Shown here: positions 7,264-8,881 of the stretch, in pieces | How the letters are laid out: the number at the start of each line of letters is the position of its first letter | Position numbering within the stretch: the stretch's first letter is position 1 | Assembly (NCBI GenBank): GCA_038851325.1 | Contig: JAWCKZ010000017.1 | Location: 1-12,379 of the forward strand | DNA: 12,379 bases | Reading direction: 5' to 3' | Origin: Candidatus Bilamarchaeaceae archaeon | Lineage (GTDB): Archaea; Micrarchaeota; Micrarchaeia; Anstonellales; Bilamarchaeaceae | Program-made: the position numbers and the translations under genes | The notes under the pieces: generated by a model | Told to the model about the DNA's origin: nothing | Databases searched by the model: none | What the model saw: the letters and a program-made list of their open reading frames with translations, nothing else

Positions 7264-7304
7264 AATTTTTCAGCGATTTTTAGAAAGCGTTGGAAAATTT
7301 ACAG
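7264..7304 (+). other. 16S intron 1 (family A, 41 nt, about E. coli 265)
   Basis: Strict BHB: helix GTAA/TTAC, bulges CG|A and AG|G, outer stem GGTGAG/CTCACC. Restores GGTAACGGCTCACC. Confidence 0.92.
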
Positions 7305-7393
7305 GCTCACCAAGCCGATAATCCCTAGGGGCCATGGGAGTGGTGGCCCCCAGAGGCACACTGAGACAAGGGTGCCAGCCCTACGGGGTGCAG

Positions 7394-7435
7394 ACGTGCG
7401 ACAGCACCGATGTATGGTGATGGAACACGGCATAA
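7394..7435 (+). other. 16S intron 2 (family B, 42 nt, about 354)
   Basis: Helix GTGC/GCAT, bulges AG|A and AA|C, relaxed outer side. Restores CCTACGGGGTGCAGCAGG. Confidence 0.9.
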
Positions 7436-7550
7436 CAGGCGCGAAACCTCCGCAATGCGCGCAAGCGTGACGGGGGGAGTCCGAGTGGCGACAACTTTGT
7501 TGTCGTCTTTTGCCGAGTGTAAGCAGCTCGGAGAATAAGGGTGTGGGCAA

Positions 7551-7591
7551 ACACAAAACGCGCACGATATATGGACGCGTGAGTGGTTCAA
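7551..7591 (+). other. 16S intron 3 (B-related loop GATATAT, 41 nt, about 509)
   Basis: Helix GGGC/GTTC, bulges AA|A and AA|G. Restores GGGCAAGACTGGTG. Confidence 0.88.
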
Positions 7592-7607
7592 GACTGGTGG
7601 CAGCCGC

Positions 7608-7650
7608 ACGCTATTTGTTCAGGTTTTTAGGAAGGCAAATGGCGGGCTAG
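7608..7650 (+). other. 16S intron 4 (family A, 43 nt, about 525; 530 loop)
   Basis: Helix AGCC/GGCT, bulges GC|A and AG|C. Restores CAGCCGCCGCGGTAA. Confidence 0.92.
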
Positions 7651-7734
7651 CGCGGTAACACCAGCGCCTCAAGTGGTACCCACGAATATTGGGCCTAAAG
7701 CGTCCGTAGCCGGTTTGGCAAGTCTTCTGTGAAA

Positions 7735-7777
7735 AGATGTTGCCTCGTGGAGCGATTTGCGAGACTTCGTCTCACAA
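7735..7777 (+). other. 16S intron 5 (family C-like architecture, 43 nt, about 609)
   Basis: Helix GTGA/TCAC, bulges AA|A and AA|T, inner stem GATG/CGTC. Restores GTGAAATGTTGGGG. Confidence 0.88.
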
Positions 7778-7789
7778 TGTTGGGGCTCA

Positions 7790-7831
7790 ACGCATGACAG
7801 CGCCGATGTATGGCGATGGAATGCGGGTTAT
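7790..7831 (+). other. 16S intron 6 (family B, 42 nt, about 621)
   Basis: Helix GGCT/GGTT (wobble-rich), bulges CA|A and AT|A. Restores GGGGCTCAACCC. Confidence 0.9.
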
Positions 7832-7992
7832 ACCCTAACGCGTGCAGAAGATACTGCCTGACTCGGGAGCGGGGGAGGGCAGGGGTACACCCGGGGTAGG
7901 GGTAAAATCCGTTGATCCTGGGTGGACCACCAGTGGCGTAGGCGCCTGTCCAAAACGCGTCCGACGGTGAGGGACGAAAGCTGGGGGAGCGA

Positions 7993-8037
7993 AACACGAG
8001 ATAGCCAGGTTTTTAGGAAGGGCTACCGAGTGTTCAA
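7993..8037 (+). other. 16S intron 7 (family A, 45 nt, about 781; boundary +/-1)
   Basis: Helix GAGC/GTTC, bulges GA|A and AA|A. Restores GGAGCGAACGGGATTAG. Confidence 0.88.
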
Positions 8038-8126
8038 ACGGGATTAGATACCCCGGTAGTCCCAGCTGTAAATTATGCAGACTTTGGTGTTACGCGCGAG
8101 TAATCGCGCGTAGTGCTGTAGCGTAG

Positions 8127-8161
8127 ACACACACTGTCGAACGACGAAGAGTGTGGCGTAA
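8127..8161 (+). other. 16S intron 8 (unassigned family, 35 nt, about 866)
   Basis: Helix GCGT/GCGT (with G-U pairs), bulges AG|A and AA|G, inner stem CACAC/GTGTG. Restores GCGTAGGTGTTAAG. Confidence 0.85.
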
Positions 8162-8312
8162 GTGTTAAGTCTGCCGCCTGGGGAGTACGATCGCAAGATT
8201 GAAACTTAAAGGAATTGGCGGGGGAGCACCACAAGCCGTGGATGCTACGGTTCAATTGGATACAACGCCGGGAACATCACCAAGGGCGACGGCAGCATGA
8301 AGGCCAGACTAA

Positions 8313-8357
8313 ACAAGGTCTGAGGGTTTTTAGGCACGTACTCAGACCTTGGTTCAA
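8313..8357 (+). other. 16S intron 9 (family A, 45 nt, about 1015)
   Basis: 11-bp inner stem CAAGGTCTGAG/CTCAGACCTTG; helix GACT/GTTC has one mismatch; bulges AA|A and AA|A. Restores CAGACTAAAGATCTTG. Confidence 0.8.
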
Positions 8358-8414
8358 AGATCTTGCCTGACAAGCCGAGAGGTATTGCATGGCCATCGTC
8401 AGCTCGTGGCGTGA

Positions 8415-8456
8415 ACGCGTGACAACGCAGATTTATTGCGGTGGAACGCGGTGTAA
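8415..8456 (+). other. 16S intron 10 (family B, 42 nt, about 1080)
   Basis: Helix GCGT/GTGT (wobble-rich), bulges GA|A and AA|A. Restores CGTGAACTGTCC. Confidence 0.9.
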
Positions 8457-8470
8457 ACTGTCCGGTTAAG

Positions 8471-8517
8471 ACCTTTGAAATGTAGCGCATTTCAAAATTT
8501 GCTACCAAAGGTAGCAA
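8471..8517 (+). other. 16S intron 11 (family C, 47 nt, about 1094)
   Basis: Helix GTTA/TAGC, bulges AG|A and AA|T, inner stem CCTTTG/CAAAGG. Restores GGTTAAGTCCGGCAACGAGCG. Confidence 0.92.
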
Positions 8518-8656
8518 TCCGGCAACGAGCGAGACCCATGCCCATAGTTGCTAATCTCTTCTCCGGAAGGGATGCACTCTACGGGGACTGCCCGCGTTAA
8601 GTGGGAGGAAGGAGTGGGCGACGGTAGGTCAGTATGGTCCGAAACCCTTGGGCTAC

Positions 8657-8701
8657 ACACGAGGTTCGGGTTTTTAGGAGTGCACGAACCGAGTGGGCCA
8701 C
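8657..8701 (+). other. 16S intron 12 (family A, 45 nt, about 1226; first of a tandem pair)
   Basis: Helix GGCT/GGCC, bulges AC|A and AC|A, inner stem CAC-GA-GGTTCG/CGAACC-GA-GTG. Confidence 0.88.
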
Positions 8702-8743
8702 ACGCATGACAGCGCCGATGTATGGCGATGGAATGCGGGCCAC
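8702..8743 (+). other. 16S intron 13 (family B, 42 nt, about 1226; second of a tandem pair)
   Basis: Follows intron 12 directly; helix GGC(C/T)/GGCC, bulges AC|A and AC|A. Removing both restores GGGCTACACGCGG. Confidence 0.88.
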
Positions 8744-8837
8744 ACGCGGCATACAATGGGTGGAACAATGGGTTGCGACTCCGAGAGGAGAAGCTAATCC
8801 CCTAAATCCACTCTCAGTTCGGATTGAGGGTTGCAAC

Positions 8838-8881
8838 ACAAGGTTCAACCAGGTTTTTAGGAAGGGTTGAGCTTGGGCAAA
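8838..8881 (+). other. 16S intron 14 (family A, 44 nt, about 1320)
   Basis: Helix TGCA/GGCA (3 of 4 pairs), bulges AC|A and AA|T. Restores GTTGCAACTCACCC. Confidence 0.85.

Follow-up and report, generated by a model that had tools for sequence, protein, structure and literature searches.

A probably mobile family of predicted bulge-helix-bulge mini-introns, with a conserved loop on varying stems, in the 16S rRNA gene of a Micrarchaeota-type archaeon

Short introns that form hairpins and carry bulge-helix-bulge (BHB) motifs are known from the 16S ribosomal RNA (rRNA) genes of Thermoproteales, with a length of less than 50 nucleotides (nt) (Jay & Inskeep 2015, PMC4496867). In Thermoproteales transfer RNA (tRNA) genes, near-alike BHB introns at different positions have been read as the outcome of transposition, the mechanism of which is given as unknown in a review (Fujishima et al. 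2010, via PMC4090602), and BHB introns have also been noted beside group I introns in Micrarchaeota rRNA genes (PMC6125680). In this study, we analyzed contig 17 of the genome of a Candidatus Bilamarchaeaceae archaeon (12,379 nt, the whole of which is referred to as the window), a Micrarchaeota-type DPANN archaeon whose genome, designated G000, comprises 0.9 Mb in 18 contigs at 43% G+C. A single 16S rRNA gene in the window contains 16 short inserts, six of which, termed family A, carry the motif RRUUUUUAGR in the hairpin loop. On balance, we lean toward the interpretation that these six belong to a mobile family of BHB mini-introns whose loop is read in trans.

The inserts resemble the Thermoproteales 16S introns in being noncoding hairpins of about 40 nt with a BHB at the exon-intron junctions; in Thermoproteales, short hairpins are listed at 7 of 13 intron loci and treated as remnants or as riders on neighboring homing-endonuclease introns (PMC4496867). 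The gene described here differs in that it holds 16 inserts by itself, has no endonuclease open reading frame (ORF) nearby, belongs to a DPANN lineage, and has insert families that are defined by their loops. Thermoproteales genes hold one to a few introns each (a working figure rather than a published count), and 16 in one 16S rRNA gene lies far above that load; some of the sites presumably coincide with Thermoproteales intron sites near Escherichia coli positions 781 and 1205/1213, the coordinate mapping being our own assumption. As with the transposing tRNA introns, closely similar introns are found at different sites and in different RNA genes; however, the tRNA intron families are alike along the whole intron and lie in tRNA genes (PMC4090602), whereas family A occurs in 16S, 23S, and tRNA genes. 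The age of family A appears to be such that its members have no more than the loop and a few closing pairs in common, so that a seemingly selected core can be told from free stems. Literature searches on rRNA introns, BHB motifs, DPANN archaea, Micrarchaeota, and intron transposition, mostly at the level of titles and abstracts, yielded no description of rRNA mini-intron families that share a conserved loop.

The archaeal 16S model of Rfam (RF01959) matched the window at positions 7002 to 9069 (984.5 bits); alignment to the 1491-nt, intron-free 16S rRNA gene of G003, which together with G001, G005, and G006 belongs to the same genus as G000, placed the true end of the gene at 9177, beyond two further inserts, and delimited 16 inserts of 35 to 47 nt each, two of them in tandem. 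The inserts were scanned for a BHB in which four exon bases (H1) pair with four intron bases (H2) and a 3-nt bulge follows each, with cut points between the second and third bulge bases, and the spliced product was checked against the independent G003 gene. In the following list of the gene and its family A members, H gives the pairs formed out of four, h' is the inner stem, and vertical bars mark the cut points.

7002-9177, forward strand: 16S rRNA gene, 1493 nt of exon and 683 nt of intron, with 16 mini-introns
7264-7304, forward strand: intron 1, 41 nt, family A, loop weakened and at about 7276-7287, GAUUUUUAGAAAG; predicted BHB GTAA CG|A ... TTAC AG|G, H 4/4, h' 11 bp; splicing restores the G003 sequence
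7608-7650, forward strand: intron 4, 43 nt, subtype A1, loop motif AGGTTTTTAGGAAGG at 7621-7635; predicted BHB AGCC GC|A ... GGCT AG|C, H 4/4, h' 11; splits the conserved GCAGCCGC|CGCGGTAA
7993-8037, forward strand: intron 7, 45 nt, subtype A1, loop motif at 8007-8021; predicted BHB GAGC GA|A ... GTTC AA|A, H 4/4, h' 2 bp and then an internal loop
8313-8357, forward strand: intron 9, 45 nt, subtype A2, loop GGTTTTTAGGCACGTA at 8325-8340; predicted BHB GACT AA|A ... GTTC AA|A, H 3/4, h' 11
8657-8701, forward strand: intron 12, 45 nt, A2-like, loop GGTTTTTAGGAGTGCA at 8669-8684; predicted BHB GGCT AC|A ... GGCC AC|A, H 4/4, h' 3
8838-8881, forward strand: intron 14, 44 nt, subtype A1, loop motif at 8851-8865; predicted BHB TGCA AC|A ... 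GGCA AA|T, H 3/4, h' 4

A BHB motif was present in all 16 inserts, with all four pairs formed in 14 of them and three of four in introns 9 and 14, and the first intron base was A in every case. The predicted spliced junctions agree, by eye, with the aligned intron-free sequence of G003. The 16S rRNA gene of G003 lacks all 16 inserts and that of G005 has two inserts, the 23S gene giving a like picture; the insertion points fall within universally conserved stretches of rRNA and, in G008, within the tRNA-Asp anticodon loop. In all 16, the intron tail is the reverse complement of the exon H1 and repeats it only where H1 is palindromic. We conclude that all 16 inserts are very likely BHB introns; a preliminary description of this DNA had already called them hairpin introns, and its numbering and span hold, with 7264 as the first base of intron 1 and 8881 as the last base of intron 14.

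Family A comprises introns 1, 4, 7, 9, 12, and 14, and in all six the motif sits in the predicted hairpin loop. Two subtypes were distinguished: A1, with C-AGGUUUUUAGGAAG-G (introns 4, 7, and 14), and A2, with G-GGUUUUUAGGYACGYG-C, often on a UGAG/CUCA closing stem (intron 9, with intron 12 as a variant). The strings listed in the preliminary description were recovered in place: CAGGTTTTTAGGAAGG in introns 4, 7, and 14, where the 15-mer AGGTTTTTAGGAAGG starts at 7621, 8007, and 8851; GGGTTTTTAGG in introns 9 and 12, with GGTTTTTAGG at 8325 and 8669; and GATTTTTAGAAAG in intron 1, starting at 7275. The base ACACGAG...CCGAGTG that it assigned to both introns 7 and 12 is indeed common to them, and the stem base of intron 7 includes a tandem G-A mismatch (ACAC-GA-G / C-GA-GUGU). 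The pattern GKTTTTTAGR occurs five times in the window against 0.23 expected, and a count of five was reached in none of 200 shuffles.

When the G000 genome was searched for GGTTTTTAGG, 8 of 10 exact sites lay in the 16S or 23S rRNA gene, all in the sense orientation, and the reversed-pattern control gave 8 hits. The 23S rRNA gene, which is located on a separate contig from the 16S gene (C13:5569-9220, minus strand) and measures 3652 nt versus 2987 in the model, has about 13 inserts, two of which exceed 100 nt and hold repeated units. It carries five further family A copies, at reference positions 115, 889, 2230, 2367, and 2590, the last with a decayed loop; a BHB fit was obtained for four of the five, with H 4/4 at 889 and 2590, 3/4 at 115, and 3/4 (by eye) at 2230. 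The genome search found no family A hairpin in G000 outside its rRNA genes. As a separate observation, the 23S rRNA gene of G001 (L044) contains an insert of about 700 nt at reference position 1993, with room for an ORF.

The loop and the stem have changed at very different rates. At six sites, G000 has a family A intron and G006 has an intron of any kind; these sites were chosen by position and not by loop, and they are less biased than the copy sets described below. Across them, the 10-nt loop core is identical at 50 of 60 positions (83%) and the adjacent 10-nt 5' arm at 20 of 60 (33%), and the exons of the same two genomes are identical at 1384 of 1506 positions in 16S (92%) and 2521 of 2929 in 23S (86%). 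The loop changes about as slowly as the rRNA exons, and the stems are at random-level identity. In sets of 15 A1 and 14 A2 copies, which were picked by loop and at least eight stem pairs, so that the loop and pairing figures are overstated, 10 of 14 and 10 of 16 loop columns, respectively, were invariant. All 13 stem pairs varied, with changes on both sides in 12 of 13 (A1) and 13 of 13 (A2); even so, 86.7% (A1) and 89.6% (A2) of the stem cells were paired, versus 56% in shuffled stems and 33 to 52% with a slid partner, and stem covariation scores were 0.82 and 0.90, versus 0.24 in shuffles and at most 0.24 in slid controls. The stems contain 17 G-U pairs versus 4 A-C mismatches, and every copy in an RNA gene has its loop in the sense strand; together, these features argue that pairing is selected on the transcribed strand.

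The U tract itself is also distinctive. Runs of five or more T are lacking in the 1493 nt of 16S exon, and seven are present in the 683 nt of intron, all of them in family A. Oligo-U tracts act as terminators for archaeal RNA polymerase, and the U5 tracts would therefore be expected to carry a cost; their presence is a further argument that something maintains them. The earlier proposals, that the stems differ and yet stay paired and that a conserved loop stands on freely varying stems, are borne out by these data; the loop did not decay as fast as the stems. We consider it likely that the family A loop is under purifying selection. The loop may serve splicing at each locus or only the spread of the intron.

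The distribution of family A was surveyed by two routes: the 16S rRNA genes of 29 relatives were inspected site by site, blind to the loop, and pattern searches were run over 176 genomes of the order, followed by inspection. Verified hairpin copies are present in rRNA genes of G000, G006, G014, G007, G032, G140, G065, G066, and G079, and the tRNA-Asp(GUC) gene of G008 has a 45-nt A2 intron in its anticodon loop. At the site of intron 1, G006 has an intron with the loop GGGTTTTTATG, and the loop-blind survey found a variant loop, TTTTTATG, in G006 at 16S site 262. Site 980, that of intron 9, holds A2 introns in G006, G014, and G079; sites 1191 to 1194 (intron 12) have an A2 intron in G006 and an A1-like intron in G014, and the site of intron 14 has an A1 intron in G140.

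Among the inspected one-mismatch A1 matches outside G000, hairpins were found in 5 of 29, in rRNA genes of G006, G014, G032, and G140; the remaining inspected matches showed no hairpin, and some of them recur in apparently conserved coding regions. When the A2 pattern was searched in 401 genomes of the phylum, 11 one-mismatch matches lay outside the order versus 8 for the control, and the three inspected had no hairpin and were not in rRNA genes. Verified copies span three families of the order, and as far as searched, family A is confined to this order.

Evidence for movement comes from family A together with two other insert families of the same gene.

7394-7435, 7790-7831, 8415-8456, 8702-8743, and 9109-9150, forward strand: introns 2, 6, 10, 13, and 16, family B
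8702-8743, forward strand: intron 13, 42 nt, family B; predicted BHB GGCC AC|A ... GGCC AC|A, H 4/4
8471-8517 and 9045-9088, forward strand: introns 11 and 15, family C, sharing AGCUUUGA...CAAAAUUUGC...AGCAA

Family B has a conserved tip, GCGCC-GAUGUAU-GGCG, and an internal motif, GACA / UGGA, with tandem G-A mismatches; like family A, it combines a conserved tip with a variable base. Related family B copies occur in G001, G006, G012, G014, and G023, and family C copies occupy the same sites in G006, G014, and G028.

One site may hold different families in different genomes: 16S site 828 has an A2 intron in G007, family B introns in G006, G023, and G012, and other introns in G000, G011, G016, and G019, and site 1465 has family B in G000 and G001 and an A2-like intron in G014. 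Conversely, one intron may recur at several sites. In G032, the A1 copies at sites 327 and 1049 of the 16S gene are the same except for 2 of about 40 positions; in family B, the 36-nt core of intron 6 recurs without change in intron 13 at an unrelated site, and the two are distinguished only by the 6-nt site-specific tail, with intron 16 showing two more differences from them; the G014 copy at site 852 has an upper stem in common with intron 14 (site 1285); and the G140 copy at site 1285 resembles intron 7 (site 740). Within the genus, the range extends from G003, which has no inserts in 16S or 23S, through G005, which has two short non-A inserts in 16S only, to the intron-full G000 and G006. 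At site 980, the lower stem of G000 is shared with G079, from another family, and the stem of G006 with G014, from another genus, which hints at allele replacement across lineages, although the stretches are short. From these patterns, we think it very likely that family A is one mobile family. Its distribution suggests that members would move between sites and between RNA genes (16S, 23S, and tRNA), with gain, loss, and replacement on a short time scale.

How new sites might be chosen is suggested by the splice motif. The 4-nt H2 of an excised intron could pair with an H1-like sequence of another RNA, after which the EndA/RtcB reaction would run in reverse; that H1:H2 pairing guides the choice of sites is a weakly supported proposal. 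The tandem pair fits it. Introns 12 (family A) and 13 (family B) occupy one exon junction (8657-8743), where a single predicted site would be the 3' splice site of the former and the 5' splice site of the latter; with GGCC AC as its tail, intron 12 re-creates the exon context of the 5' splice site (GGCU AC), and one 3-nt bulge would serve both introns. Similarly, the G032 copies keep the H2 sequences GTCC and GTCG at sites with different H1, with wobble pairs (by eye). Against the proposal, family B intron 16 has an H2 (ACGG) unlike that of introns 6 and 13. Two other sources of intron sequence were considered. Target duplication was ruled out as the origin of the 6-nt tail, which is reverse complementary to H1 and equals it only where H1 is palindromic. 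The idea that stems are copied from the flanking exon, which was prompted by eye from the G148 insert discussed below and from introns 7 and 9, was rejected for this gene; with the best local match of the intron core as the measure, the 16 introns scored 5.25 against their own flanks and 5.47 against the flanks of other introns (permutation P = 0.84).

The enzymes that splicing would need are encoded in the genome. EndA, of 391 amino acids (aa) and encoded on contig C1, has a full-length match to PDB 4FZ2 (E 4.5e-130), the broad-specificity ε2 endonuclease of ARMAN-2, shown to cut strict and relaxed BHB motifs (PMC3488258); the match agrees with a placement of G000 in the Micrarchaeota. ARMAN-2 has the same type of enzyme and belongs to a lineage known for many noncanonical introns; the work on it concerns tRNA introns, and in the text consulted neither rRNA mini-intron families nor a conserved loop is described. 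G000 has a second EndA paralogue of 159 aa; RtcB is found in all five genomes examined (E 1.5e-168 for the G000 match), and each of the five has one LSM-domain (Sm-like) gene, which in G000 lies at C2:131667-131861. Disrupted tRNA genes have reportedly been described in Candidatus Micrarchaeum acidiphilum ARMAN-2 (PMC3239211). The RtcB matches are split within frames of 987 aa in G006 (C22) and 1212 aa in G014 (C38), versus 485 to 500 aa in G000, G003, and G005; the split frames are likely to contain inteins.

Anatomy and gene content together suggest an architecture in which the base of the hairpin forms the BHB with the exon, by H1:H2 pairing and two 3-nt bulges, and the tip carries RRUUUUUAGR. 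The ε2 endonuclease would cut both bulges and RtcB would join the exons, the excised intron probably being released as a small circle. The loop is kept like the rRNA exons, the stems are saturated with compensated changes, and the orientation is always sense; for these reasons, a trans-acting factor most likely reads the loop as single-stranded RNA and may be needed either for harmless splicing or for spread. Three observations favor recognition as RNA, namely that copies are in sense, that G-U pairs are in excess, and that the family occurs in RNA genes of three kinds, and we would put the chance that the loop is read in trans as RNA at about even.

The leading candidate for the reader of the loop, which is a guess and a doubtful one, is the Sm-like protein, proposed because the loop is a single-stranded U5 tract flanked by purines. 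U5 with flanking purines is present in the loop of all six family A introns, and archaeal Sm-like proteins bind oligo-U. The loop resembles the Sm site of eukaryotic small nuclear RNAs in having a single-stranded U5 flanked by purines and helices; however, it reads U5-A-G-R, with an extra A in the consensus, versus A-U(4-6)-G-R for the Sm site, and it lies in a closed hairpin. Other RNA motifs were considered. A K-turn, K-loop, or C/D box was rejected, the loop having neither box and introns 7 and 12 having tandem G-A mismatches but no 3-nt bulge (by eye). Rfam at the gathering threshold gave no match inside the introns, and a search by eye for a loop-to-loop pairing partner, in the family C loop and the 16S CCUAAAG stretch, revealed nothing convincing. 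Taken a step further, the U5 loop might be the recognition element of a machinery that moves BHB introns, in which a host protein such as an Sm-like ring would hold the circle, H2 would select H1-like sites, and the endonuclease/ligase reaction would be reversed; we offer this as speculation with a low chance of being right.

The preliminary description had suggested that family A might co-occur with particular enzymes, and these associations were not found. The reverse transcriptase family RVT_1 is present in none of five genomes examined. The Y1/HUH transposase family PF01797 is absent from G000, G006, G005, G007, G008, G140, and G079 and present in G003, G014, and G148, and the Y1-bearing G003 has no inserts in 16S or 23S. 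The set of EndA and RtcB paralogues is the same in intron-rich and intron-poor genomes, and TnpB-type domains and LSM genes likewise show no pattern that follows intron load.

The observations from G148 bear on whether the hairpin may also spread as DNA. In this genome, a repeat outside introns contains an A2 hairpin; nine loop copies lie on seven contigs, none in an rRNA gene.

L103, L109, L112, and L114 to L119: loci of the G148 composite repeat
L133 to L146: the element in other genomes

The hairpin forms an insert of about 45 nt in a 58-nt GC-rich element that starts with CCGAACCGCGGAGG and ends with CCTGACCCTCCCCC, and the insert is lacking in the other genomes inspected. Parts of a 164-nt query from the composite repeat match at 90 to 100% identity in 58 of the 176 genomes of the order; the 58-nt element is intergenic, neighbors tRNA genes, and in one case (L143) is located within an intron of a tRNA anticodon loop. 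Its nested inserts in G148 include the A2 hairpin and a hairpin element of about 105 nt. By eye, the G148 hairpin and the upper portion of the intron at 23S site 2230 of G000 agree at 30 of 31 positions, and no BHB was seen by eye at the insert. An 8-nt direct repeat, TTGAGGGT, flanks most of the inserted part and could reflect a microhomology event. In L118 and L119, a hairpin-bearing sequence of about 55 nt interrupts the A2 loop directly behind GGTTTTTA and has a TTTTT on either side; the A2 loop can itself be an insertion target. Copying of an A2 module as DNA, without its being part of an intron, is thus possible. The hairpin is never found apart from its larger repeat in G148, and a single insertion would account for all the copies there. 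We also observed that the hairpin element nested in the G148 repeat includes a palindromic core of 18 nt, which is present five times in G000 at 100% identity.

C1:6810, C1:120064, C9:22499, C9:22548, and C14:670: 18-nt palindromic core in G000

An explanation at the level of DNA would make family A a palindromic element moved as single-stranded DNA by a transposase that reads the loop, with copies in RNA genes surviving where the flanks happen to form a BHB. It has the G148 repeat in its favor, since the repeat is found without the hairpin elsewhere, and the insertion of another short element just after GGTTTTTA in two of the copies; G148 also encodes one Y1 transposase, whose short contig carries pieces of the composite repeat, and the failure to find a reverse transcriptase in five genomes favors a DNA route. 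The comparison with REP/RAYT and IS200/IS605 elements is apt insofar as these are also short hairpin repeats. In those systems, recognition is by structure and a short sequence, the stems and a flanking tetranucleotide are conserved, and the copies are intergenic. The family A stems vary, unlike those of REP or insertion sequence (IS)-end families, its copies are in sense in every case in which the host gene could be named, and the transposase does not follow the element, being absent from the intron-rich G000 and G006, as well as from G007, G008, G140, and G079, and present in the insert-free G003. In addition, family A hairpins in G000 are confined to its rRNA genes, all 16 introns have an H2 that is reverse complementary to H1 and is not a direct target duplication, the test for copying of stems from the flanking exon gave a negative result, and a single insertion followed by spread of the composite repeat suffices for G148. 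We therefore regard this explanation as unlikely. An alternative in which the loop has no function, being shared only by descent from a recently multiplied ancestor and destined to decay, draws on the weakened loops of intron 1, G000 23S site 2590, and G014 sites 389 and 742, and on near-identical young copies such as those of G032. It is improbable, given that between G000 and G006 the stems are already at random identity with the loop core still largely intact, and that the same loop is carried on unrelated stems in three families, where neutral decay would strike an unpaired loop at least as fast.

Two remaining alternatives concern the fate of the RNA. If excised introns served as an abundant antisense or sponge RNA with the loop as the seed, aimed at a target in the cell or in a host, about 11 RNAs bearing the loop would be set free from one rRNA transcript, and a perfect 15-nt complement of the A1 loop does exist in G000 (C1:22777-22791; about 1496-1510 of L001), on the sense strand of an ORF of 259 aa that has no assigned family; for a 10-mer match, an extension by 5 bases has a chance of about 1 in 1000. 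However, this lone complement is missing (at up to 3 mismatches) from the best-matching loci of G001, G003, G005, G006, and G014, even though G006 has A1 introns, and no other complement exceeds chance (2 non-rRNA 10-mer matches versus 8 in the control); the conserved antisense target envisaged in the preliminary description was thus not found, and the explanation seems very improbable. Less probable still is that the inserts are retained as expansion segments of the mature ribosome, the loop being a ribosomal feature, as all 16 have an exact BHB and interrupt those functional parts of 16S that are most conserved, a tRNA anticodon loop holds the same element, and presence varies within one genus.

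Several points weigh against our preferred reading of family A as mobile BHB introns whose loop is read in trans. The A2 hairpin of G148 lies in a DNA repeat outside introns, which fits spread at the level of DNA, and, with no reverse transcriptase found in the five genomes, an RNA-level route would lack a way into DNA. Most copies outside G000 and G006 were found via the loop, and its near invariance across the order is partly by construction. In the loop-blind survey, some introns at the same sites were not family A (G014 site 482 and G034 site 740), and loops are weakened at G014 site 742 and G006 site 262 and decayed at G000 23S site 2590. As for the candidate reader, the Sm-like gene is equally present in intron-free relatives, and in the eukaryotic Sm site the U tract is followed by G, whereas the family A loop has U5-A-G. 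The loop cannot be a general need of the splicing enzymes, since families B and C and the unclassified introns manage without it. If replacement by fresh mobile copies is frequent, conservation of the loop could reflect mobility rather than a role in splicing. Finally, splicing, the circles, and binding of the loop are proposed from sequence.

These findings bear on how archaeal BHB introns reach new sites. In family A, the parts required for splicing, the free stems, and the apparently selected loop are separable, which makes the loop a concrete object for testing. If the loop is a mobility element, family A would stand as the first lineage of BHB introns in which a mobility signal separate from the splice motif can be recognized, and the record intron load of G000 (16 in 16S and about 13 in 23S) would be the outcome of a loop-based mechanism. 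Furthermore, the introns split several standard primer sites, and organisms of this kind would be missed or mis-sized in amplicon surveys.

Public reads place the gene in hot springs. Four metagenomes of hot-spring DNA (X1 to X4) hold at least half of the sampled words of the gene, versus fractions of 0.08 to 0.12 in RNA runs. Contigs from X1, possibly the source sample, cover intron-bearing stretches that include introns 9 to 14 with 0 differences. Contigs from three RNA runs differ by 2 to 12 positions per piece and come from other habitats and the rRNA of other organisms; their skips at the intron sites are what intron-free relatives would give and have no bearing on splicing here.

The other genes in the window are housekeeping genes, for desulfoferrodoxin, UbiD, a flavoprotein, NAD(P)HX dehydratase, a serine hydrolase, adenylosuccinate synthetase, and GlmS; among the genes of the window there is no nuclease, transposase, or polymerase, in agreement with the earlier remark that it encodes no mobilizing enzyme. 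The window also contains a signal recognition particle (SRP) RNA at 2525-2825 on the reverse strand, for which the best Rfam match is the bacterial large SRP model (93 bits) and not an archaeal model.

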